Positions 3,129 to 20,293 of a stretch of DNA of 30,082 nt are shown here, one piece after another. The stretch lies in IMG/VR virus record IMGVR_UViG_2627853983_000001, one strand, 5' to 3'. Every line of letters starts with the position of its first letter. The first letter of the stretch is position 1. A program made the translations under genes and the position numbers. The notes beneath the pieces were generated by a model that saw nothing but the letters and a program-made list of their open reading frames with translations, did not search any database and was not told where the DNA came from. The DNA is from a virus (taxonomy: Duplodnaviria; Heunggongvirae; Uroviricota; Caudoviricetes).

Positions 3129-5568
3129 CAATGTAAAATTACAGGTATTGCTCAGGGCTGTTGACCAGGCATCCCGCCCGTTTAAATCCATCCGCACAGC
3201 GAGTAAGTCGCTGTCGGGGGATATCCGGGAAACACAAAAATCACTGCGCGAACTGAACGGTCAGGCATCCCGTATTGAGGGATTCCGCAAGACCAGCGCA
3301 CAGCTCGCCGTGACTGGTCATGCACTTGAAAAGGCACGGCAGGAGGCCGAAGCCCTTGCCACACAGTTTAAAAACACCGAACGTCCGACTCGTGCTCAGG
3401 CGAAAGTGCTGGAATCCGCAAAGCGTGCGGCGGAGGACTTACAGGCGAAATATAACCGCCTGACGGATTCCGTTAAGCGCCAGCAGCGGGAACTGGCCGC
3501 TGTGGGAATTAATACCCGCAATCTTGCACATGATGAGCAGGGGCTGAAAAACCGTATCAGTGAAACCACCGCACAGCTTAACCGTCAGCGCGACGCACTG
3601 GCGCGTGTCAGTGCACAACAGGCAAAACTTAACGCAGTCAAACAGCGTTATCAGGCCGGCAAGGAACTGGCCGGAAATATGGCCTCAGTGGGCGCTGCCG
3701 GTGTGGGGATTGCGGCGGCGGGAACGATGGCCGGAGTTAAGCTGCTGATGCCCGGTTATGAGTTTGCGCAGAAAAACTCAGAATTACAGGCTGTGCTCGG
3801 AGTGGCAAAAGACTCCGCCGAAATGGCCGCGCTCCGCAAACAGGCGCGCCAGCTCGGCGACAACACCGCCGCCTCGGCGGATGATGCGGCCGGTGCACAG
3901 ATAATCATCGCGAAAGCGGGTGGGGATGTTGATGCCATTCAGGCGGCAACGCCGGTCACGCTGAATATGGCGCTGGCGAACCGCCGCACGATGGAAGAAA
4001 ACGCCGCCCTGCTGATGGGGATGAAATCCGCCTTTCAGCTTTCAAACGATAAGGTCGCTCATATCGGGGATGTTCTCTCCATGACGATGAACAAAACCGC
4101 CGCCGATTTTGACGGTATGAGCGATGCGCTGACCTATGCCGCACCTGTGGCAAAAAATGCCGGTGTCAGCATTGAAGAAACCGCCGCAATGGTCGGGGCG
4201 CTGCATGATGCAAAAATCACAGGCTCAATGGCGGGGACGGGAAGCCGTGCCGTGTTAAGCCGCCTGCAGGCACCGACGGGAAAAGCATGGGATGCACTCA
4301 AAGAGCTTGGAGTGAAAACCTCAGACAGCAAGGGAAACACCCGGCCAATATTTACCATTCTGAAAGAAATGCAGGCCAGTTTTGAGAAAAACCGGCTCGG
4401 TACTGCCCAGCAGGCTGAATACATGAAAACTATTTTCGGGGAGGAGGCCAGCTCAGCCGCCGCCGTGCTGATGACTGCCGCCTCAACCGGAAAGCTGGAC
4501 AAACTGACCGCTGCGTTTAAAGCCTCAGACGGGAAGACCGCCGAGCTGGTAAATATCATGCAGGACAACCTAGGCGGTGACTTTAAAGAGTTTCAGTCCG
4601 CTTATGAGGCGGTGGGGACTGACCTGTTTGACCAGCAGGAAGGCGCACTGCGTAAGCTCACGCAGACGGCCACAAAGTATGTGTTAAAACTCGACGGCTG
4701 GATCCAGAAAAACAAATCACTGGCGTCAACCATCGGACTTATTGTCGGTGGTGCACTGGCACTGATTGGTGTCATCGGTGCCATTGGCCTCGTAGCCTGG
4801 CCGGTTATCACCGGCATCAATGCCATCATCGCGGCAGCAGGCGCAATGGGGGCAATCTTCACGACGGTTGGCAGTGCTGTTATGACCGCCATCGGAGCGA
4901 TTAGCTGGCCGGTTGTGGCCGTGGTGGCCGCCATTGTCGCCGGGGCGTTGCTTATCCGTAAATACTGGGAGCCTGTCAGCGCATTCTTTGGCGGTGTGGT
5001 GGAAGGGCTGAAAGCGGCATTTGCGCCGGTGGGGGAACTGTTCACGCCACTTAAGCCGGTGTTTGACTGGCTGGGTGAAAAGTTACAGGCCGCGTGGCAG
5101 TGGTTTAAAAACCTGATTGCCCCGGTCAAAGCCACTCAGGACACCCTGAACAGTTGCCGTGACACGGGGGTCATGTTCGGGCAGGCACTGGCTGACGCGC
5201 TGATGCTGCCGCTTAATGCGTTCAACAAACTGCGCAGCGGTATTGACTGGGTACTGGAAAAACTCGGTGTTATCAACAAAGAGTCAGACACACTTGACCA
5301 GACCGCCGCCAGAACTCAAGCCGCCACGTATGGCAGCGGTAGTTATATTCCGGCGACCAGCTCTTATGCAGGCTATCAGGCTTATCAGCCGGTCACGGCA
5401 CCGGCTGGCCGCTCTTATGTAGACCAGAGTAAAAACGAATATCACATCAGCCTGACGGGTGGTACTGCGCCGGGGACACAGCTTGACCGCCAGTTACAGG
5501 ATGCGCTCGAAAAATACGAGCGGGATAAACGTGCGCGCGCCCGTGCCAGCATGATGCATGACGGTTAA
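3121..5568 (+). CDS. T: Tail tape measure protein
   Basis: 815-aa ORF, coiled-coil N-terminus and Gly/Ala-rich hydrophobic segment; same length and position as P2 T. Confidence 0.92.
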   Translation: MSNNVKLQVLLRAVDQASRPFKSIRTASKSLSGDIRETQKSLRELNGQASRIEGFRKTSAQLAVTGHALEKARQEAEALATQFKNTERPTRAQAKVLESAKRAAEDLQAKYNRLTDSVKRQQRELAAVGINTRNLAHDEQGLKNRISETTAQLNRQRDALARVSAQQAKLNAVKQRYQAGKELAGNMASVGAAGVGIAAAGTMAGVKLLMPGYEFAQKNSELQAVLGVAKDSAEMAALRKQARQLGDNTAASADDAAGAQIIIAKAGGDVDAIQAATPVTLNMALANRRTMEENAALLMGMKSAFQLSNDKVAHIGDVLSMTMNKTAADFDGMSDALTYAAPVAKNAGVSIEETAAMVGALHDAKITGSMAGTGSRAVLSRLQAPTGKAWDALKELGVKTSDSKGNTRPIFTILKEMQASFEKNRLGTAQQAEYMKTIFGEEASSAAAVLMTAASTGKLDKLTAAFKASDGKTAELVNIMQDNLGGDFKEFQSAYEAVGTDLFDQQEGALRKLTQTATKYVLKLDGWIQKNKSLASTIGLIVGGALALIGVIGAIGLVAWPVITGINAIIAAAGAMGAIFTTVGSAVMTAIGAISWPVVAVVAAIVAGALLIRKYWEPVSAFFGGVVEGLKAAFAPVGELFTPLKPVFDWLGEKLQAAWQWFKNLIAPVKATQDTLNSCRDTGVMFGQALADALMLPLNAFNKLRSGIDWVLEKLGVINKESDTLDQTAARTQAATYGSGSYIPATSSYAGYQAYQPVTAPAGRSYVDQSKNEYHISLTGGTAPGTQLDRQLQDALEKYERDKRARARASMMHDG

Positions 5569-11036: not shown

Positions 11037-11308
11037 GTATTCGTATTGAAATTGGCGAACGTTATGTCGTTACCAGTGACAGCTTTCAGTTTATTCTCCA
11101 CGAGAAAAAGAGAGCGGAAAGCGGTAAAAACGCCGGTCAGGAATGGCTGGCGGTGGTTGGTTATTACCCGAAATTAGGCCAGCTCGTTTCCGGCCTGATG
11201 CATCACGATATTCTGACCGGAAGCGCAAAATCTTTTGCTGATTTAAACGCGCAGGTTGAGCAACTCAGCAAGCGTTGTTCAGAGGCTTTTGGCTCATATG
11301 GCCGTTAA
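11033..11308 (+). CDS. Small early protein (P2 orf83-region)
   Basis: 91-aa ORF overlapping neighbours by 4 nt; operon context. Confidence 0.65.
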   Translation: MSIRIEIGERYVVTSDSFQFILHEKKRAESGKNAGQEWLAVVGYYPKLGQLVSGLMHHDILTGSAKSFADLNAQVEQLSKRCSEAFGSYGR

Positions 11309-13574
11309 AGCCTCCGGGCGTTTTGTCCCTCCGTCAGCATTTACCGCAGGCACCGGTAAGGCGTTTACCGGTGCTTATGCATGGAACGCGCCACGCGAGG
11401 CTGTCGGGCGCGAAAGACCTCTTACACGTGACGAGATGCGTCAGGTGCAAGGTGTTTTATCCACGATTAACCGCCTGCCTTACTTTTTGCGCTCGCTGTT
11501 TACTTCACGCTATGACTACATCCGGCGCAATAAAAGCCCGGTGCACGGGTTTTATTTCCTCACATCTACTTTTCAGCGTCGTTTATGGCCGCGCATTGAG
11601 CGTGTGAATCAGCGCCATGAAATGAACACCGACGCGTCGTTGCTGTTTCTGGCAGAGCGTGACCACTATGCGCGCCTGCCGGGAATGAATGACAAGGAGC
11701 TGAAAAAGTTTGCCGCCCGTATCTCATCGCAGCTTTTCATGATGTATGAGGAACTCTGCGATGCATGGGTGGATGCGCATGGTGAAAAAGAATCGCTGTT
11801 TACGGATGAGGCGCAGGCTCACCTGTATGGTCATGTTGCTGGCGCTGCACGTGCTTTCAATATTTCCCCGCTCTACTGGAAAAAATACCGTAAAGGACAG
11901 ATGACCACGAGGCAGGCATATTCTGCCATTGCCCGCCTGTTTAACGATGAGTGGTGGACTCATCAGCTTAAAGGCCAGCGTATGCGCTGGCATGAGGCGT
12001 TACTGATAGCTGTCGGGGAGGTCAATAAAGACCGTTCTCCTTATGCCAGTAAACACGCCATTCGTGATGTGCGTGCGCGCCGCCAGGCAAATCTGGAATT
12101 TCTTAAATCGTGTGACCTTGAAAACAGGGAAACCGGCGAGCGCATCGACCTTATCAGTAAGGTGATGGGCAGTATTTCTAATCCTGAAATTCGCCGGATG
12201 GAGCTGATGAACACCATTGCCGGTATTGAGCGTTACGCCGCCGCAGAGGGTGATGTGGGGATGTTTATCACGCTGACCGCGCCGTCAAAGTATCACCCGA
12301 CACGTCAGGTCGGAAAAGGCGAAAGTAAAACCGTTCAGCTTAATCACGGCTGGAACGATGAGGCATTTAATCCAAAGGATGCGCAGCGTTATCTCTGCCG
12401 TATCTGGAGCCTGATGCGCACGGCATTCAAGGATAATGATTTACAGGTCTACGGTTTGCGAGTCGTCGAGCCACACCACGACGGAACGCCGCACTGGCAT
12501 ATGATGCTTTTTTGTCATCCACGCCAGCGTAACCAGATTATCGAAATCATGCGTCGCTATGCGCTCAAAGAGGATGGCGACGAAAGAGGAGCCGCGCGAA
12601 ACCGTTTTCAGGCAAAACACCTTAACCGGGGCGGTGCTGCGGGATATATCGCGAAATACATTTCAAAAAACATCGACGGCTATGCACTGGATGGTCAGCT
12701 CGATAACGACACCGGCAGGCCGCTGAAAGACACTGCAGCGGCTGTTACCGCATGGGCGTCAACGTGGCGCATTCCGCAATTTAAAACGGTTGGCCTGCCG
12801 ACAATGGGGGCTTACCGTGAACTACGCAAATTGCCTCGCGGCGTCAGCATTGCTGATGAGTTTGACGAGCGCGTCGAGGCTGCACGCGCCGCCGCAGACA
12901 GTGGTGATTTTGCGCTGTATATCAGCGCGCAGGGTGGGGCAAATGTCCCGCGCGATTGTCAGACTGTCAGGGTCGCCCGTAGTCTGTCGGATGACGTTAA
13001 CGAGTACGAGGAAGAAGTCGAGAGAGTGGTCGGCATTTACGCGCCGCATCTCGGCGCGCGTCATATTCATATCACCAGAACGACGGACTGGCGCATTGTG
13101 CCGAAAGTTCCGGTCGTTGAGCCTTTGACTTTAAAAAGCGGCATCGCCGCGCCTCGGAGTCCTGTCAATAACTGTGGAAAGCTCACCGGTGGTGATACTT
13201 CGTTACCGGCTCCCACACCTTCTGAGCACGCCGCAGCAGTGCTTAATCTGGTTGATGACGATGTTATCGAATGGAATGACCCGGAGGTCGTGAGGGCGCT
13301 CAGGGGCGCATTAAAACACGACCGGAGAACGCCAAACCGTCAGCAAAGAAACGGAAGCCCGTTAAAACCGCATGAAATTGCACCATCGGCCAGACTGACC
13401 CGGTCGGAACGATTGCAAATTACCCGTATCCGCGTTGATCTCGCTCAGAACGGTATCAGGCCGCAACGATGGGAGCTTGAGGCGCTGGCGCGTGGCGCGA
13501 CCGTAAATTATGACGGGAAACCTTTCACTTATCAGGTCGCTGATGATTGGCCGGGATTTTTGTTACCCATTTGA
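11298..13574 (+). CDS. A: Rolling-circle replication initiator A (HUH endonuclease)
   Basis: Start set at MAVKASGRF... (tracked ORF starts 14 codons earlier). Contains HUH-type motif PHWHMMLF and tyrosine motif GYIAKYISK; collinear with recalled P2 A. Confidence 0.92.
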   Translation: MAVKASGRFVPPSAFTAGTGKAFTGAYAWNAPREAVGRERPLTRDEMRQVQGVLSTINRLPYFLRSLFTSRYDYIRRNKSPVHGFYFLTSTFQRRLWPRIERVNQRHEMNTDASLLFLAERDHYARLPGMNDKELKKFAARISSQLFMMYEELCDAWVDAHGEKESLFTDEAQAHLYGHVAGAARAFNISPLYWKKYRKGQMTTRQAYSAIARLFNDEWWTHQLKGQRMRWHEALLIAVGEVNKDRSPYASKHAIRDVRARRQANLEFLKSCDLENRETGERIDLISKVMGSISNPEIRRMELMNTIAGIERYAAAEGDVGMFITLTAPSKYHPTRQVGKGESKTVQLNHGWNDEAFNPKDAQRYLCRIWSLMRTAFKDNDLQVYGLRVVEPHHDGTPHWHMMLFCHPRQRNQIIEIMRRYALKEDGDERGAARNRFQAKHLNRGGAAGYIAKYISKNIDGYALDGQLDNDTGRPLKDTAAAVTAWASTWRIPQFKTVGLPTMGAYRELRKLPRGVSIADEFDERVEAARAAADSGDFALYISAQGGANVPRDCQTVRVARSLSDDVNEYEEEVERVVGIYAPHLGARHIHITRTTDWRIVPKVPVVEPLTLKSGIAAPRSPVNNCGKLTGGDTSLPAPTPSEHAAAVLNLVDDDVIEWNDPEVVRALRGALKHDRRTPNRQQRNGSPLKPHEIAPSARLTRSERLQITRIRVDLAQNGIRPQRWELEALARGATVNYDGKPFTYQVADDWPGFLLPI

Positions 13575-13832
13575 GTAAAAATACAGCGTGATTTTATATG
13601 TCTTTGAATGGATTATGCGAAACACCTCTAAGGTAGATGAGGAGCAATAGCGTGTTGAATCAGAAGGCTAAATTGTATTGAATCGTTAGCATGTAATTGA
13701 AGGCAGCTATTTGATTCGAGTCATAAAAGAGCATCTATTTCGGTTAATAAAACCATTGCGAGTGACTTTATGTCGAAGCATAATTCATCTCGAGCGAAGT
13801 CTTGCTAGTCTTTCATCGGATTGATGACGGGC

Positions 13833-13869
13833 GCAAAAAAACCACCCTGGCAGGTGGTTTTTTTGTTTG
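13833..13869. terminator. Bidirectional rho-independent terminator (A-run, ACCACC-loop-GGTGGT stem, T-run)
   Basis: AAAAAAACCACCCTGGCAGGTGGTTTTTTTG; it can terminate the early operon from the left and the minus-strand small ORF from the right. Confidence 0.65.
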
Positions 13870-13876
13870 AAGCATA

Positions 13877-13990
13877 CTAAAGAAAAATACTTACATGGAT
13901 ATTACTGACGTTTACTGACAAACCACTCGGACTACCATATGGATAGCCAAAGAGGGCCAGAACGAGAATGCAGTAATAGCACTTCTTCAT
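13877..13990 (-). CDS. Candidate small protein, 37 aa (MKKCYYCILVLALFGYPYGSPSGLSVNVSNIHVSIFL), hydrophobic N-terminal half
   Basis: Not in the ORF track because it is under 60 aa. AGGAGG Shine-Dalgarno 4 nt before the ATG; stop codon 7 nt from the bidirectional terminator. Coding status unproven. Confidence 0.35.
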   Translation of the reverse strand: MKKCYYCILVLALFGYPYGSPSGLSVNVSNIHVSIFL

Positions 13991-14646
13991 ATCGCCTCCT
14001 GTAAGCAGAGGGCAATTTCCGCCGATATATGCGCTTCTAAGGCGGAGTGACTATTGAGCGAAGTCTTGCCCTGAAATAATGCTCTGTTTAAACGCAAAGT
14101 GATCTGGCATATCACCGAACAGAGGACCTGAACAACACAACATATAGTATGTCGTTGTTTCTGGTTGCATTTTATGTTGTGTAATACTGGTTTTGCATCA
14201 AGGATGTTTGAGCTTTTTTTGATATAGCTCAAAGTAAAAAGCAGAGACTACGGATGATAAGGTCTTGAAAGCAATGTAAATTTTTTAAAGTTGTGAGTGG
14301 CTAGAAATGCACAGTTTCAATATGGCGGATTTAAACAAGTAATTAAAAATAGCGACATAAATTCCAATAAAATCATTAAGTTGCGTTTTCTGTGGAAACT
14401 TCGGTGACTCTGAAATTTTCTTTTAGTATCGCTGAGGTTTAACAACTCGCTGCGCAAGTAGTTAGTGTTTTTTTAACTCAATATTCTGATTTATAAGGTT
14501 TTTTATAAAACGTGGGCTGGTTGCGCGTATTCATCTCGTGTTATCAGCAAAGATAAGCTCTATATGCAGAACTGAATGCATATATGATGTCGAAAATGTT
14601 ATGGGAAAACGTGGATTAGTGTTATAGTAATGGCTGAAAAACAGCC

Positions 14647-14675
14647 TTGACATAAAATAACAGCTGTGATATGGC
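14647..14675 (+). promoter_or_regulatory. Sigma70-type promoter for the ImmA-like gene (TTGACA, 17-bp spacer, TGaTATGGC extended -10)
   Basis: Perfect -35 hexamer at 14647..14652, TGn plus TATGGC at 14667..14675, about 35 nt upstream of the AGGAGG Shine-Dalgarno and ATG 14712. Confidence 0.5.
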
Positions 14676-14711
14676 TGTGCATACTTAACTTTTTTAACGT
14701 AGGAGGCAACC

Positions 14712-15197
14712 ATGAGCTATGCAGCTAAAAAACTGCTTGACCGCTATTGGGATCGCCGACTACCTGTCGATCCGTTTAAGCTTGCTAAAGCGTGGGGTGC
14801 TCGTGTTGAAGCACTTGAGGAATCGGCTTATAACAACGATGGGTTAAGCGGTCTGGCTGTCATCAAAAAGGGTGTCCATAGGATTTATTTTGATTCTAGT
14901 GAACATTCTAATCGTCAACGTTTTACTGTTGCACACGAGTTAGGTCATCATGTGCTGGGGCATACCCAGGACGGAGAGTACCATCGGGATAATGTCGGGA
15001 ATTATTCAACAGGTGCTCGTGATTACCGTGAGGTTGAAGCAAACAAGTTTGCTGCTGAGTTGTTAATGCCTGAGTCTGCTATACGTCAATTGGTATCCAG
15101 AGAAGGTATTGATAGCACTTTGAGATTAGCAAGCATCTTTAATGTATCAGAAGCCGCTATGCATTGGCGCTTAAAGAGCTTAGGAATGGCTTATTAA
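14712..15197 (+). CDS. ImmA/IrrE-family zinc metallopeptidase (COG2856 / DUF955-like), HEXXH motif
   Basis: 161 aa with FTVAHELGHHVLGH (HEXXH) and downstream EANKFAAELLMPE, the pattern of ImmA/IrrE peptidases. Strong Shine-Dalgarno GTAGGAGG. No adjacent HTH partner ORF. Confidence 0.75.
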   Translation: MSYAAKKLLDRYWDRRLPVDPFKLAKAWGARVEALEESAYNNDGLSGLAVIKKGVHRIYFDSSEHSNRQRFTVAHELGHHVLGHTQDGEYHRDNVGNYSTGARDYREVEANKFAAELLMPESAIRQLVSREGIDSTLRLASIFNVSEAAMHWRLKSLGMAY

Positions 15198-15222
15198 TTA
15201 GCCTTTAACTTTTAACCTGTTT

Positions 15223-15263
15223 AAAATCACCTTTACGTTTGTACATGTAAGGGTGATTTTTTT
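15223..15263 (+). terminator. Terminator-like hairpin (AAAATCACCTTTAC / GTAAGGGTGATTTT) with T-run, overlapping the RBS of the next gene
   Basis: 13-14 bp stem with one mismatch, loop GTTTGTACAT, followed by TTTTTTT ending 1 nt before ATG 15264. Confidence 0.55.
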
Positions 15264-15863
15264 ATGGCTGATATTGATTTATCTGGACAGTCCCCAGAGC
15301 AAGGAACCACTCCTAAGGGCGATTTAGATCCTGATATCCTTATAAGGCGAGATAGACGGGATGGTATAGAGCGTAGAAGTATGCGATTAGTGCTCTCTGC
15401 CGTTGTGCTTTGTTTTGCTTGTACATTTCTATGGCAGGGGCTTAACTTTGCTTTGGCTGTTGGAAATGGCTTGCTGGAAGCGAAAAGCAGTATTGCCGCA
15501 GCGATAACACAAAAAGTAGATACACAAACTTGTGTTTCAGCAGAAAAATGTTCTGCTTTATCTTCGGATCCGAAGATGGCTGATGAGAGGATAACACCAT
15601 CTTCAGACACTAATAAAGTTAGAAAATCTATTTCTGGTTTATCCACCGATTGGTTATCGGCCAGTTCTCTAATAGCTATTGTTGCATTCATCCTTGGTGT
15701 GGGTTTAACTTTGCTTTTGACTCTTCTTAAATCAGCATTTCAACACCCGACAGATAAAGACTTTAGAACAAAGTCGACATCTAATACTATTGAGTTGGCC
15801 ACGCCAATCAGTGAATTAATAATTGGTGTTCTGAATATAATTAAAGACAAACTATCTAAGTAA
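15264..15863 (+). CDS. Predicted two-pass membrane protein of unknown function
   Basis: 199-aa ORF with two hydrophobic segments (LVLSAVVLCFACTFLWQGLNFALAV and LIAIVAFILGVGLTLLLTLL) flanking a Ser/Thr-rich loop; convergent terminator downstream. The overlapping minus-strand ORF 15233..15691 is the alternative reading. Confidence 0.55.
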   Translation: MADIDLSGQSPEQGTTPKGDLDPDILIRRDRRDGIERRSMRLVLSAVVLCFACTFLWQGLNFALAVGNGLLEAKSSIAAAITQKVDTQTCVSAEKCSALSSDPKMADERITPSSDTNKVRKSISGLSTDWLSASSLIAIVAFILGVGLTLLLTLLKSAFQHPTDKDFRTKSTSNTIELATPISELIIGVLNIIKDKLSK

Positions 15864-15904
15864 AGCATTAGTTGTGATTTTTTATTGGTTTTAGTGATAA
15901 TACA

Positions 15905-15938
15905 TCTCCAGTACTTATTGTTACTGGAGAGTATTTTT
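15905..15938. terminator. Convergent terminator between the membrane-protein gene and the 313-aa minus-strand gene
   Basis: Stem TCTCCAGTA / TACTGGAGA, loop CTTATTGT, followed by GTATTTTT; 15 nt from the minus-strand gene stop. Confidence 0.6.
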
Positions 15939-15945
15939 AGTCGTT

Positions 15946-16887
15946 TTATATTTTTAATGTTAGTGAATGATATTCACGAGAGTTCACGTTCGATGTGATG
16001 TAATCGGGGGCGTTAACACCAAGAATCGCAACGAGTAATCGGCAAATTAAAGCCTGCATTTGTTGTAATATGTCATCTCCATATTGATAATTGTTAATAG
16101 TGGTAAAGCCAAGTGGTTGACCATGAAACATAGCTTCATGAAAGTTTTCATTGCGGATGTTTGTAATGTTTTTTTTGCCTGTAACCCATGATGGTCGTGG
16201 TATTCCATAAGTTTTGCAGATCCACTTCAAGCGCCTGGAGTGATTTAGAGTCTTTTCTGTACACTTGTTCTTTTCTGCCCATGTTAAAGCAAAGCAACTA
16301 TCCAGTGCCATGTAAAGATACTGGAATTTTTCGAAGCTAAGGTATTGTGGGTTTTGGGATAAAAATAGTGCATGCACTATTGCTGCTATATTTATTGGTG
16401 CGTGTTTGGTTTTTGTCTCGCTAGACATGTATTTGAGTGCTAATTCTATAACCTCTTTTTCAGAGCACTTGACCAGAATAAAGTCAGTTAATTTGCTGGG
16501 TTTTATTGGGGTTGCGTCTAAAAAACCGGCATCAGTAGTTGTTAATCTTATCCCTTTGAAAAAAGACAGACACCACACAGCAAAATTGAGAGTTTCTAGT
16601 GAAGATGTATTTTTTAATTTTAGTGAGTGTGTTTTGGGTAAGCCAAATACTCGTTGGCTAAAAGGCATTGTGGATATGCCTCCATTGAGGTTATATACTT
16701 CTTGGTTTCCTGGGTATATCCAACCGTTAATAACATTTCTGTGATTGTTTATAAGATTTGTTTTTTCCGCCAGACCGGGTAAAGTAAGTAAAGAAAAATC
16801 ATCAGTTTCAACGTTAACTTCTACTGGATAGTATCCAAACTCAGCTTCAATATCATTGGATTGCTGTTCGTCAACTTTACCTTGCAT
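15946..16887 (-). CDS. Hypothetical 313-aa protein with HEPN-like RNxxxH motif (RNENFH, residues 245..250); candidate abortive-infection RNase
   Basis: Long ORF in the AT-rich island with GGAG Shine-Dalgarno 6 nt upstream. The RNENFH motif was verified on the DNA (minus strand of 16138..16155). The fold assignment is inferred from the motif only. Confidence 0.7.
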   Translation of the reverse strand: MQGKVDEQQSNDIEAEFGYYPVEVNVETDDFSLLTLPGLAEKTNLINNHRNVINGWIYPGNQEVYNLNGGISTMPFSQRVFGLPKTHSLKLKNTSSLETLNFAVWCLSFFKGIRLTTTDAGFLDATPIKPSKLTDFILVKCSEKEVIELALKYMSSETKTKHAPINIAAIVHALFLSQNPQYLSFEKFQYLYMALDSCFALTWAEKNKCTEKTLNHSRRLKWICKTYGIPRPSWVTGKKNITNIRNENFHEAMFHGQPLGFTTINNYQYGDDILQQMQALICRLLVAILGVNAPDYITSNVNSREYHSLTLKI

Positions 16888-16905
16888 ACATTGCTCCGGT
16901 CAAAA

Positions 16906-16933
16906 ATAGGCTCGATAATTCTCGTAAGCCTAT
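16906..16933 (-). promoter_or_regulatory. Leader hairpin plus U5 tract (terminator/attenuator-like) immediately upstream of the RBS of the 313-aa gene
   Basis: On the minus strand: ATAGGCTTACGA-GAATTA-TCGAGCCTAT followed by TTTTT, then GACCGGAGCAATGT-ATG. Confidence 0.45.
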
Positions 16934-17124
16934 CATGTTCGCAAAGTATCCATACCTGTGGATTTTGTAAATTTAAGTTGATTTGTCATTAAATAAGCCG
17001 TTGCATGCAACAAGTGAATGTTTTTGCATGCGTCGGGGATGTCCGTTCAGGCTGCGTGCGGTCAGGACTGGTGCGGATCCATAGTATCTATGCAACTGCA
17101 TTAAAACCGCCCCATGAAGCGGGC

Positions 17125-17143
17125 GGGCGAGGCGGGGAAAGCA
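17125..17143. other. cos: cos site (19-nt cohesive end sequence GGCGAGGCGGGGAAAGCAC)
   Basis: Exact match to the P2 cohesive-end sequence as I recall it, in the expected position just beyond the portal gene Q. Confidence 0.75.
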
Positions 17144-17284
17144 CTGCGCGCTGGCGGTGGTGCTGATTTTATTTTTTCAGCGTCTGAGCGCGTCGTGATG
17201 GCGTTTAGATTGTGCGCCGGGGCGTTGGTGTGTCTGCGGGCTGTTTTGTGCGGTGGTGAGTGTGTGAGGGCGTGATGACGGGCT

Positions 17285-17308
17285 GTAAAAAAGCCGCCCG
17301 CAGGCGGC
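17285..17308 (-). terminator. Rho-independent terminator downstream of Q (minus strand)
   Basis: GCCGCC-CGCA-GGCGGC stem followed on the minus strand by TTTTTT. Confidence 0.6.
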
Positions 17309-17313
17309 GATGT

Positions 17314-18348
17314 TCAGCCGTTGTCAGTGTCCAGTGAGTAGTTTTTAAAGCGGATGACCTCCTGACCGAGCCAGCCGTTTATCTCGCGGATCCTGTCCTG
17401 TAACGGGATAAGCTCATTGCGGACAAAGACCTTTGCCACTTTCTCAATATCACCCAGCGACCCGACGTTCTCCGGCTTGCCGCCCATCAACTGAAAGGGG
17501 ATGCGGTGCGCGTCCAGCAGGTCTGCGGCACTGGCTTTTTTGATATTAAAAAAATCGTCCTTCGTCGCCACTTCACTGAGCGGGATAATTTTAATGCCGT
17601 CGGCTTTTCCCTGTGGGGCATAGAGAAACAGGTTTTTAAAGTTGTTGCGGCCTTTTGACTTAACCATGTTTTCGCGGAGCATTTCGATATCGTTGCGATC
17701 CTGCACGGCATCAGTGACGTACATGATGTATCCGGCATGAGCGCCGTTTTCGTAATACTTGCGGCGGAACAGCGTGGCTGATTCATTCAGCCAGGCAGAG
17801 TTAAGGGCGCTGAGATATTCCGGCAGACCGTACAGCTCCTGATTAATATCCGGCTCCAGCAGGTGAAACACGGAGCCGGGCGCGAAAGGTGTCGGCTCAT
17901 GGAAGGACGGCACCCACCAGTAAACATCCTCTTCCACGCCACGGCGGGTATATTTTGCCGGTGAGGTTTCCAGTCTGATGACCTTACCGGTGGTGCTGTA
18001 ACGCTTTTCCAGAAACGCATTACCGAACACCAGAAAATCCAGCACAAAGCGGCTGAAATCCTGCTGGGAAAGCCACGGATGCGGGATAAATGTCGAGGCC
18101 AGAATATTGCGTTTGACGTAAATCGGTGAGCTGTGATGCACGGCAGCACGCAGGCTTTTTGCCAGACCGGTAAAGCTGACCGGTGGCTCATACCATCTGC
18201 CGTTACTGATGCACTCGACGTAATCCAGAATGTCACGGCGGTCGAGTACCGGCACCGGCTCACCAAAGGTGAATGCCTCCATTTTCGGGGCGCTGGCGGT
18301 CATTTTTTTTGCCGCAGGTTGCGGTGTTTTCCCTTTTTTCTTGCTCAT
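17314..18348 (-). CDS. Q: Portal protein
   Basis: 344-aa ORF; P2 Q length and position next to cos. Confidence 0.92.
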   Translation of the reverse strand: MSKKKGKTPQPAAKKMTASAPKMEAFTFGEPVPVLDRRDILDYVECISNGRWYEPPVSFTGLAKSLRAAVHHSSPIYVKRNILASTFIPHPWLSQQDFSRFVLDFLVFGNAFLEKRYSTTGKVIRLETSPAKYTRRGVEEDVYWWVPSFHEPTPFAPGSVFHLLEPDINQELYGLPEYLSALNSAWLNESATLFRRKYYENGAHAGYIMYVTDAVQDRNDIEMLRENMVKSKGRNNFKNLFLYAPQGKADGIKIIPLSEVATKDDFFNIKKASAADLLDAHRIPFQLMGGKPENVGSLGDIEKVAKVFVRNELIPLQDRIREINGWLGQEVIRFKNYSLDTDNG

Positions 18349-20120
18349 CAGTAAAACTCCAGAATGGTGGATGTCAGCGGGGTGCTGATACCGGCGGTGA
18401 GTGGCTCATTTAACAGGGCGTGCATGGTCGCCCAGGCGAGGTCGGCGTGGCTGGCTTCCTCGCTGCGGCTGGCCTCATACGTGGCGCTGCGTCCGCTGCT
18501 GGTCATGGTCTTGCGGATAGCCATAAACGAGCTGGTGATGTCGGTGGCGCTGACGTCATATTCCAGACAGCCACGGCGGATGACGTCTTTTGCCTTGAGC
18601 ACCATTGCGGTTTTCATTTCCGGTGTGTAGCGGATATCGCGCGCGGCGGGATAGAACGAGCGCACGAGCTGGAACACGCCGACACCGAGGCCGGTGGCAT
18701 CAATACCGATGTATTCGACGTTGTATTTTTCGGTGAGTTTGCGGATGGATTCCGCCTGAGTGGCAAAGTCCATGCCTTTCCACTGGTGACGCTCAAGTAT
18801 TCTGAATTTGCCACCGGCCACCACCGGCGGTGCCAGTACCACGCATCCGGCGCTGTCGCCACGGTGTGACGGGTCGTAACCAATCCATACCGGGCGGGAG
18901 CCGAACGGATTCGCGGCAAACGGCGCATAGTCTTCCCATTCTTCCAGCGTGTCGACCATGCAGCGTTGCAGCTCCTCGAACGGGAACACCGACGCCTTGT
19001 CGTCAACAAATTCACACATGAACAGGTTTTTAAAATCGTCGGCGCTGTTTTCACGTTTGAGCTGCTCAATGTCGAACAGCGTGCAGCCGCCTTTCAACGC
19101 GTCCTCAATGGTGACAATCTGCCGCCACTGGCCGTCTGCACAGAGAAGCCCACCGGCAAGGGCGTTATGACTGACGTCGATTTCCACGCGTTCGGCGGCG
19201 CTGGCGCGTCCCCGGTTGAACAGTTCACCCGACCAGAACGGGTAGGCGTCGTGCGCCAGCGTGGACGGGGTGGAGAAATAGGTCGAACGCAGGTGACTCT
19301 GTGAGGCCATACCTGATGCCACCTTACGCAGTACCTGAAAATTCGGGATCCAGAAAATCTCGTCGACGTACAGGTCGCCGTTATGGCTCTGCGCGGTGTT
19401 GGAGTTGGTGCCGAGAAAAATCAGTTTTGCGCCGTTATTGCCCAGGACAATCGGGTCACCGGTCAGGTCAACGTCAACCAGCCGGGCAAAGGCGATGATG
19501 TATTCGCGGAACACATACGCCTGCGTTTTACTGGCCGACAGAAAAATCTGGTTATGACCGGTTTTCAGGGCGCGCAGCAGCGCCTCGCGGGAAAAATAAA
19601 ACGTCGCGCCAATCTGGCGGGATTTCAGGATATCGCGGATGCGGTGCTCAAGCCCGGCGCGATACCAGTGCAACTGATATTCGAAAGACTGCTCAAAGAA
19701 AATCTGCTCCAGCTTTTTGATGGCCTCGTCACTGAAAAAATTCTTTTTCGGTTTGCGGCGCCCGCCTTTGTTGCGGTTAGCGACGTTCGGATTAAGGTCT
19801 GCCTCGTTGCCGGTCTGACTGTAACGGTTGACCCGTGCCAGTCGTTCAATCTGGCGTCCGAGCAGGTCAATTTCCTTGAAGTCACCGCCGGTTTTCTGCG
19901 GTTTTATGATGAGCTGGGTCAGCCGCGCTTCCAGACTCATTTCGACACGGCTGATGGGGGCAACGCTGTCCCAGCCGTCGCGCTGTTTCCAGCTCTGCAC
20001 CGTCGGGCGTTTCATCTGCAACATGGCGGCAATCTGCGGCACGGAAAATCCCTGCCAGTACAGCAGCGCCGCCTGACGACGCGGGTCGTGTAAAAGAGTG
20101 GTGTCTGTGGTGATGGTCAT
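18348..20120 (-). CDS. P: Terminase large subunit (ATPase/nuclease)
   Basis: 590 aa from MTITTDTTLLHDPRRQAALLYWQGFSVPQIA... (tracked ORF extends 10 codons upstream); P2 P length; overlaps the Q start. Confidence 0.92.
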   Translation of the reverse strand: MTITTDTTLLHDPRRQAALLYWQGFSVPQIAAMLQMKRPTVQSWKQRDGWDSVAPISRVEMSLEARLTQLIIKPQKTGGDFKEIDLLGRQIERLARVNRYSQTGNEADLNPNVANRNKGGRRKPKKNFFSDEAIKKLEQIFFEQSFEYQLHWYRAGLEHRIRDILKSRQIGATFYFSREALLRALKTGHNQIFLSASKTQAYVFREYIIAFARLVDVDLTGDPIVLGNNGAKLIFLGTNSNTAQSHNGDLYVDEIFWIPNFQVLRKVASGMASQSHLRSTYFSTPSTLAHDAYPFWSGELFNRGRASAAERVEIDVSHNALAGGLLCADGQWRQIVTIEDALKGGCTLFDIEQLKRENSADDFKNLFMCEFVDDKASVFPFEELQRCMVDTLEEWEDYAPFAANPFGSRPVWIGYDPSHRGDSAGCVVLAPPVVAGGKFRILERHQWKGMDFATQAESIRKLTEKYNVEYIGIDATGLGVGVFQLVRSFYPAARDIRYTPEMKTAMVLKAKDVIRRGCLEYDVSATDITSSFMAIRKTMTSSGRSATYEASRSEEASHADLAWATMHALLNEPLTAGISTPLTSTILEFY

Positions 20121-20293
20121 GAATACCTCGCCGTGATGAATACACGGCAAGGCTACTGAGTCGCGCCCCGCGATTCGCTAAGGTGCTGTTGTGTCAGTGA
20201 TAAGCCATCCGGGACTGATGGCGGAGGATGCGCATCGTCGGGAAACTGATGCCGACATGTGACTCCTCTAATCACTATTCAGGACTCCTGACA
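20121..20293. promoter_or_regulatory. Divergent late promoter region (P_P / P_O), expected Ogr-dependent
   Basis: Intergenic region between divergent P and O, as in P2. Specific Ogr binding dyads were not confidently located by eye. Confidence 0.45.

Follow-up and report, generated by a model that had tools for sequence, protein, structure and literature searches.

A 313-residue hypothetical protein of a P2-like Escherichia coli prophage is a candidate one-gene defence protein with a predicted divergent HEPN domain

What is the function of the 313-amino acid (aa) hypothetical protein encoded beside the portal gene in a P2-like prophage of Escherichia coli? The gene is found in IMG/VR virus record IMGVR_UViG_2627853983_000001 (Caudoviricetes), a stretch of 30,082 nucleotides that was analysed whole and is referred to as the window. 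A first-pass annotation, made from the letters of the window, had noticed the motif RNENFH in this protein and suggested a HEPN-type RNase or toxin of an abortive-infection system, with an N-terminal part of about 240 aa that could be a sensing or regulatory domain. The open reading frame (ORF) and the position of the motif were confirmed from the ORF list and the sequence. The Shine-Dalgarno sequence, described as good, is a GGAG located 6 nt 5' of the ATG, and the gene is convergent with a membrane-protein gene as stated, a 199-aa ORF on the plus strand (15264..15863) with two hydrophobic segments predicted as transmembrane (TM) segments. The features of the gene are listed below.

15946..16887, minus strand: coding sequence of the 313-aa protein, ATG start (ORF list and sequence reading)
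16894..16897, minus strand: Shine-Dalgarno GGAG, 6 nt before the ATG at 16887 (sequence reading)
16138..16155, minus strand: codons of R245-N-E-N-F-H250, an Rx4H (RNxxxH) catalytic-type HEPN motif (ORF list, sequence and alignment)
16468..16887, minus strand: beta-rich domain at the N-terminus (about aa 1-140), without recognisable relatives and proposed to have a sensing or regulatory role
15949..16467, minus strand: C-terminal helical domain, about aa 141-313, predicted HEPN fold

The protein is identical to RefSeq WP_001161722.1, which is a "hypothetical protein" in E. coli genome annotations. A PHROGs search found only families of 'unknown function', among them phrog_5937 (PHROG 5937), which matches the protein over its full length (3e-205). 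A 74%-identical gene is on record as 'ORF313' of prophage P2-EC67 (AM157369) at the same locus and in the same orientation, and that record has an annotated ribosome-binding site at the equivalent place. The analysis described here indicates that the protein is probably an anti-phage defence protein. Its C-terminal region (about residues 141-300) is assigned with high confidence to the HEPN fold on the basis of a structural model and the conserved motif.

HEPN superfamily proteins carry an Rx4-6H motif, often in the form RNxxxH, and dimerise to form a composite active site that cleaves RNA independently of metal. The Rx4-6H pattern was found in 50% of shuffled versions of the 313-aa protein and is worthless alone. 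The narrower RNxxxH pattern was found in 1.7% of the shuffles, and it occurs a single time among window ORFs of at least 100 aa. The motif is considered meaningful because it is conserved across a family, not because it is merely present. Searches for homologs yielded 603 clusters at 90% identity and, at 50% identity, 664 representatives, nearly all of about 300 aa and without functional names (one UniRef cluster is labelled 'Apea-like HEPN'). The named members belong to the Gamma- and Betaproteobacteria (Salmonella, Klebsiella, Enterobacter, Aeromonas, Acinetobacter, Pseudomonas, Xanthomonas, Stenotrophomonas, Comamonas, Thauera and others). When 96 family members with 25-73% identity were aligned, six residues proved invariant (G112, E186, R245, H250, G260 and R283) and seven more at least 90% conserved (N246, E251, H87, R114, D135, H216 and R219). 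Of 95 full-length representatives, 93 have R-x4-H at the equivalent position, and in 88 of these 93 it takes the form RNxxxH. The motif proposed in the first-pass annotation therefore stood up well, with R245 and H250 invariant and N246 conserved in at least 90% of the 96 relatives. One could argue that both the motif and the fold match arose by chance in a protein of unrelated function. RNxxxH does turn up by chance in shuffled sequences at the frequency given above, yet here it is fixed in position and invariant across a family of 664 clusters, and we regard a coincidence as very unlikely. Family members of odd length were inspected as possible domain-swapped relatives and rejected as such: they carry frameshift-like junk and Arg/Pro-rich tails and no Pfam domain. 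Since the unusual lengths are frameshift artefacts, both domains always travel together.

Structure predictions were made on monomers. The model built from the 96-sequence alignment has a mean predicted local distance difference test score (pLDDT) of 93.7 and a predicted template modelling score (pTM) of 0.92. Residues 1-140 form a beta-rich domain containing two helices. Residues 141-300 contain helices at 143-155, 163-176, 184-206, 216-227, 241-250 and 273-288. R245 and H250 are on the short helix 241-250, which is followed by a beta-hairpin and loop insertion and then by helix 273-288. The predicted structure has a four-helix core with the motif on a core helix. The first-pass annotation had named the lack of a HEPN-like four-helix fold around the motif as grounds for abandoning the idea; the model does show a HEPN-like fold there. 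The same model changes the domain boundary. As the HEPN domain is placed at about residues 141-300, the front domain without known relatives is about 140 aa long and not 240 aa.

A number of results weigh against a HEPN nuclease. An earlier, shallower model had pLDDT <50 precisely at the motif. Structure prediction followed by a structure search, as proposed in the first pass, gave a divided answer: HEPN-like helices were predicted around the motif, and the Foldseek search against PDB returned nothing significant (best E 0.64). The profile search proposed there came out negative, as the protein has no match in Pfam (every HEPN-clan family included), NCBIfam or PADLOC, and no significant match to these three was found among sets of 36 and 96 relatives. 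An hhalign comparison with the alignment of the validated DS-11 HEPN family reached only 4.8% probability. No experiment on this protein family was found in the literature searched, in which WP_001161722 appears in no paper's main text and the protein is nowhere recognised as HEPN. It is also the case that some HEPN-fold domains are not nucleases.

The remaining sequence comparisons were marginal. The DS-11 alignment, at its 4.8% probability, puts the motif and a helix-1 glutamate in register. hhalign against three single sequences (DS-11, the HEPN of a GNAT system and the DS-28 HEPN) found nothing. About 12 sub-threshold Pfam matches occurred in the 96 members, two of them in the HEPN clan (HEPN_RiboL-PSP, 0.074; HEPN_Apea, 0.15); that two HEPN-clan families appear there is judged unlikely to be chance, and the signal is weak. 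Because the sequence-profile tests are negative or marginal, the HEPN assignment is structural and motif-based, and by sequence the protein is a new HEPN family. A search of PDB sequences with the single protein found nothing. The family profile matched 6uhi (RyR domain) at residues 1-59 with an E value of 0.0018, and single-copy chains scored 0.07-0.28. This marginal similarity to a RyR domain was not accepted: the 6uhi score adds together two weak copies (domain E 1.3 and 18) in a duplicated chimera, and the Pfam RyR family (PF02026) matches none of the 96 members.

If the fold is HEPN, is the protein a defence nuclease? It might instead be a nucleotide- or ligand-binding domain, a factor in the phage lifecycle or in lysogenic conversion, or an anti-defence protein. 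Anantharaman and co-workers are said to have described in 2013 R-N-x3-H with a following E as the catalytic signature, one that is usually lost in non-catalytic HEPN domains. This signature, with its conserved E, is retained across the family described here. The gene is also found outside phages, in integrative and conjugative elements (ICEs) and chromosomes, and a phage lifecycle function is therefore disfavoured. In the DefensePredictor supplement, WP_001161722.1 has a mean log-odds of 9.68 (strict cut-off 4) and is listed as 'Predicted novel defense gene', which provides independent computational support, in the form of a prediction, for a role in defence. By HHblits in the same study the protein is without link to known defence proteins, ApeA included, and its family is not among the units tested in that study. 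Taken with this score, a non-defence role for the HEPN fold is considered unlikely. The preferred reading is a defence nuclease.

The position of the gene is consistent with such a role. The landmarks around the gene in the window, a P2-like E. coli prophage, are the following.

11256..13574, plus strand: replication endonuclease gpA
17126..17144, plus strand: P2-type cos core GGCGAGGCGGGGAAAGCAC, 19 nt (exact single match, none in shuffles)
17314..18348, minus strand: portal
18348..20150, minus strand: terminase ATPase

We take GGCGAGGCGGGGAAAGCAC to be the P2/P4 cos sequence; it lies about 240 bp upstream of the start codon of the 313-aa protein. The cos core puts this gene at the right-hand end of the phage map, presumably in the slot that P2 assigns to 'old'. 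The GC content is 34-43% between 13500 and 17000 versus 51-58% in the phage backbone. The low GC content and the position relative to gpA, portal and cos indicate that the gene is foreign cargo in the gpA-portal ("tin/old") hotspot, and as a variable gene between gpA and portal/cos it fits the description of P2 hotspot cargo. Rousset et al. 2022 (PMC9122126) reported the P2 gpA-portal hotspot as a reservoir of anti-phage systems. Table S5 of that paper contains exactly WP_001161722 in the P2 hotspot as 'hypothetical', beside an M78 peptidase, and the GGCGAGGCGGGGAAAGCAC string is also within the P4 fragments cloned by the same authors. The 'Putative HEPN' that they tested from a P2 hotspot (pFR103) was compared and is an unrelated protein. 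A defence-like setting for the gene is thus seen in the P2 gpA-portal hotspot, in ICEs and in prophage morons.

Does the protein work alone? Distribution and neighbours were examined in 5426 complete E. coli genomes, in 42 IMG/VR contigs and, for neighbour clustering, in 33 loci of Gamma- and Betaproteobacteria; the genome scan used the 36-sequence alignment, as the 96-sequence alignment is too diverse for that purpose. The gene is carried by 99 complete E. coli genomes, about 1.8%. The cargo next to it and the sequence between the convergent genes are as follows.

14712-15197, plus strand: ImmA/IrrE M78 peptidase, neighbouring cargo (PF06114 3.8e-21; PADLOC capP 1e-30)
15264-15863, plus strand: 199-aa two-TM protein, PHROG 8096, neighbouring cargo
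15905..15930, either strand: hairpin with 9-bp stem and 8-nt loop, terminator-like on both strands, between the convergent membrane gene and the gene of the 313-aa protein

These neighbours raise the possibility of a three-gene system in which the 313-aa protein is the effector and the ImmA/IrrE peptidase or the membrane protein is the regulator, antitoxin or sensor. In the window the three genes are neighbours, and in E. coli they travel as a set: the allele with at least 99% identity is found with both ImmA and the membrane gene in 46-47 of the 5426 genomes. They are one locus in Table S5 of Rousset et al. ('Peptidase_M78 + hypothetical + hypothetical'), and ImmA resembles CapP, a regulator of defence systems (PADLOC 1e-30). 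The co-occurrence, however, is confined to this one near-clonal cassette. A further 52 E. coli genomes have alleles with 74-78% identity in the same slot without the pair, and the co-cargo there is DinI with small ORFs, DUF3850 with IS2, or DUF2158 with a 226-aa protein. The order portal, 313-aa protein gene and, beyond the other cargo, gpA is kept in 41 of the 42 IMG/VR contigs with at least five different neighbour sets, and in contigs L078-L080 the gene is the sole sizeable cargo (at most one more ORF of 60-89 aa is present). The M78 peptidase is missing from 34 of the 42 viral contigs and from 52 of the 99 E. coli carriers. It is in turn found in P2 hotspots in which the HEPN gene is absent; Table S5 (PMC9122126) lists it with another hypothetical protein in such an arrangement. 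The membrane gene and the gene of the 313-aa protein are convergent, with the terminator-like hairpin in between. Clustering of the neighbours at the 33 loci found no family common to the loci apart from the HEPN protein itself. A three-gene system is accordingly very improbable, and since P2 hotspots that lack the HEPN gene can carry the peptidase, 14712-15863 may be a separate two-gene cargo. We conclude that the 313-aa protein is a self-contained one-gene module and not part of a larger system.

The other partner to be considered is an antitoxin. The protein could be the toxin of a toxin-antitoxin (TA) pair, with a small unannotated adjacent protein or RNA as the antitoxin (type III AbiF-like or type VII HepT/MntA-like). 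The Pfam matches of neighbours at the 33 loci include no MNT/nucleotidyltransferase in any locus. No Rfam RNA was found near the gene, and there is no tandem repeat in 13500-17400 save a 2-copy 15-mer near cos. The upstream gap in Aeromonas is just about 105 bp, the nearby small ORFs are of differing families from phage to phage, and the protein, with its extra domain, has over twice the length of minimal HEPN toxins. A TA pair is the least probable of the alternatives weighed here. The toxin suggested in the first-pass annotation is not supported. No antitoxin or partner gene is conserved across the loci, and this suggests a self-restrained enzyme rather than a TA toxin.

Homologs outside E. 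coli are found in varied settings. In an Acinetobacter prophage the homolog is a reverse-oriented moron, in Aeromonas chromosomes it is alone between housekeeping genes, and other homologs are in elements with type IV secretion system genes, integrases and resolvases. In a P. aeruginosa ICE (L002-L005, 9984-12960) the homolog is located about 3 kb from a Gabija-like pair (OLD-family ATPase/TOPRIM and UvrD helicase); the element also holds DUF932 and ParB-like genes and has the setting of a defence island. In the P2-like viral contig L076 (IMGVR_UViG_2871639894_000008, about 4001-4768 plus upstream sequence) an insertion encoding ORFs of 87 and 277 aa divides the gene into pieces of 62 and 239 aa. 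The insertion is probably an insertion sequence (IS) element, and the case is an example of inactivation of the gene. In E. coli MS15052 (NZ_CP082097, 5315-6319) a gene for a 334-aa hypothetical protein is found between the homolog and the portal. The 334-aa gene, which viral contigs L057 and L058 also have, is a further uncharacterised hotspot cargo of some 186-like or P2-like prophages.

By analogy with the solo and fused HEPN defences ApeA, HepS, DARNA and DS-11 we infer RNase activity, dimerisation, sensing by the N-terminal domain, abortive infection and the nature of the trigger. In the proposed mechanism, the beta-rich N-terminal domain of about 140 aa, which packs against the divergent C-terminal HEPN domain (about aa 141-300) in the model, would hold the nuclease inactive in uninfected cells; such restraint would fit the absence of a conserved antitoxin gene. 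The N-terminal domain would detect an infection cue (a phage protein, a nucleic acid or a small molecule) and the nuclease would be switched on. Two HEPN domains would dimerise into a composite site, in which the invariant R245 and H250 together with N246 would cut RNA. Judging from ApeA, HepS, DARNA and PrrC, the likely substrates would be the anticodon loops of tRNAs or else other essential RNAs. Translation would then stop and the phage could not multiply. This complete scheme, in which one protein with a new sensor domain acts as an abortive-infection HEPN RNase, is favoured with somewhat less confidence than the defence role itself. A more specific version is put forward tentatively: the N-terminal domain with its near-invariant polar residues R79, H87, R114 and D135 may be a new receptor for a phage protein or for an infection-derived nucleotide as in ApeA, it may open the divergent HEPN site allosterically, and the gene may be a one-gene cassette that has spread across P2-like phages, ICEs and the chromosomes of Gamma- and Betaproteobacteria.

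Other features of the region are given here for completeness. A consensus scan upstream of the gene found one promoter candidate.

16962..16989, minus strand: weak sigma-70-like promoter candidate, ATGACA-16-CAAAAT, upstream of the 313-aa protein gene (9/12 matches)

The number of sigma-70-like sites is not above the shuffle expectation, and the candidate at 16962..16989 is no evidence of function. The ImmA/IrrE peptidase resembles the CBASS regulator CapP and stands alone, with no helix-turn-helix or Xre partner gene visible near it. The gap from the gpA stop to the ImmA start (13575-14711) contains about 765 bp (13575-14340) kept at about 86% identity, locally above 90%. None of 150 complete E. 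coli genomes sharing this 1.1-kb stretch has an annotated feature in it. The 765 bp are kept even in prophages with an empty hotspot, for example in NZ_CP119008, where the gpA-portal gap is 1.08 kb and no gene is called. The segment 13575-14340 has the appearance of a backbone element that annotation has missed in this P2-like lineage. Within it, a 37-aa hydrophobic ORF on the minus strand (13874-13987), MKKCYYCILVLALFGYPYGSPSGLSVNVSNIHVSIFL, has a strong GGAGG Shine-Dalgarno sequence, and a bidirectional GC-rich terminator hairpin follows at about 13838-13866. Only three amino acids of the 37-aa ORF are changed in an 'empty-hotspot' prophage (L039). A 14-nt direct repeat, GAGCGAAGTCTTGC, is found at 13793 and 14055. 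The Rfam search at this ORF gave only a sub-threshold RNAI-like match (E 0.029). The locus may encode a small membrane peptide or be a type I toxin-like locus.

Parts of this finding are already known: the gene is catalogued in Table S5 of Rousset et al. and as ORF313 of P2-EC67, and its role in defence has been predicted by machine learning. As a candidate new family of solo HEPN defence proteins it is solid and testable, and it would be of little surprise to specialists. If the proposal is true, a compact and widespread family of 313-aa proteins would join the solo HEPN abortive-infection nucleases (ApeA, HepS, DARNA and DS-11), and a name could be given to a recurrent "hypothetical" gene of the P2 hotspot that is missed by PGAP, Pfam and PADLOC. 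Because the nuclease is paired with a sensor domain without recognisable relatives, it would also be a small new model for the detection of infection by one protein, and its phage locus is genetically tractable.

Comparison with known HEPN systems shows that the protein is closest in working principle to ApeA and HepS. ApeA is a single-protein defence system of about 550-600 aa with an alpha-helical N-terminal domain, a Mid domain and a split HEPN domain, in which the N-terminal regions build a ligand pocket through which anticodon cleavage is switched on (Gao et al. 2020; bioRxiv 10.64898/2026.01.26.701840). Both proteins have a C-terminal HEPN domain in which an insertion separates the helix bearing the motif from the last core helix, and N-terminal region(s) of unknown ancestry packed on the HEPN domain. 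Both are encoded by a single gene without a conserved partner, and ApeA too occurs in P2/P4 hotspots. In contrast to ApeA, the protein described here has 313 aa and one beta-rich N-terminal domain; the three-domain architecture is absent. It has no match to HEPN_Apea (PF18739) or to the PADLOC ApeA models, and only one of the 96 relatives reaches E = 0.15. HepS of the Gifsy-1 prophage is inactive by default, and a phage product triggers it to cleave tRNA anticodon loops, which leads to abortive infection (PMC13043305). As a prophage-encoded solo HEPN protein without partner or antitoxin it provides the working model for the 313-aa protein. It differs in being one HEPN domain of less than 250 aa (motif R100-H105) with no extra domain, and it is found in another prophage type and locus.

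DS-11 (CBS plus HEPN) and DARNA/PD-T7-3 (HEPN plus helical domain), both validated by catalytic mutants, are likewise one-protein combinations of a HEPN nuclease and a sensor domain. The motif context of DS-11 (IRNDVMH) resembles that of the 313-aa protein (IRNENFH). Their sensor domains, CBS in DS-11 and a Pds5-like helical domain in DARNA, are not related to that of the 313-aa protein, and the HEPN domain of DARNA is N-terminal. The minimal HEPN proteins and toxins (AF0298/UPF0332, HepT of HepT-MntA, and YutE) differ in being stand-alone proteins of 120-150 aa, usually with a gene for an MNT nucleotidyltransferase, and no sequence similarity was detected between them and the 313-aa protein. 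The latter also differs from HepT-MntA (type VII TA) in having no adjacent MNT gene at the 33 loci, from AbiF-like type III TA systems in having no tandem-repeat RNA antitoxin upstream of its gene, and from modules controlled by ImmA/IrrE in that an M78 peptidase does not consistently co-occur and accompanies only the allele of at least 99% identity. Identity with DARNA/PD-T7-3, HepS, ApeA or DS-40 of DefensePredictor was considered, and none of these is the same protein. In size, architecture and profile match the protein falls outside ApeA and HepS. It is best described as a one-gene sensor-plus-HEPN defence: systems of this kind are known, and the sensor domain is distinct.
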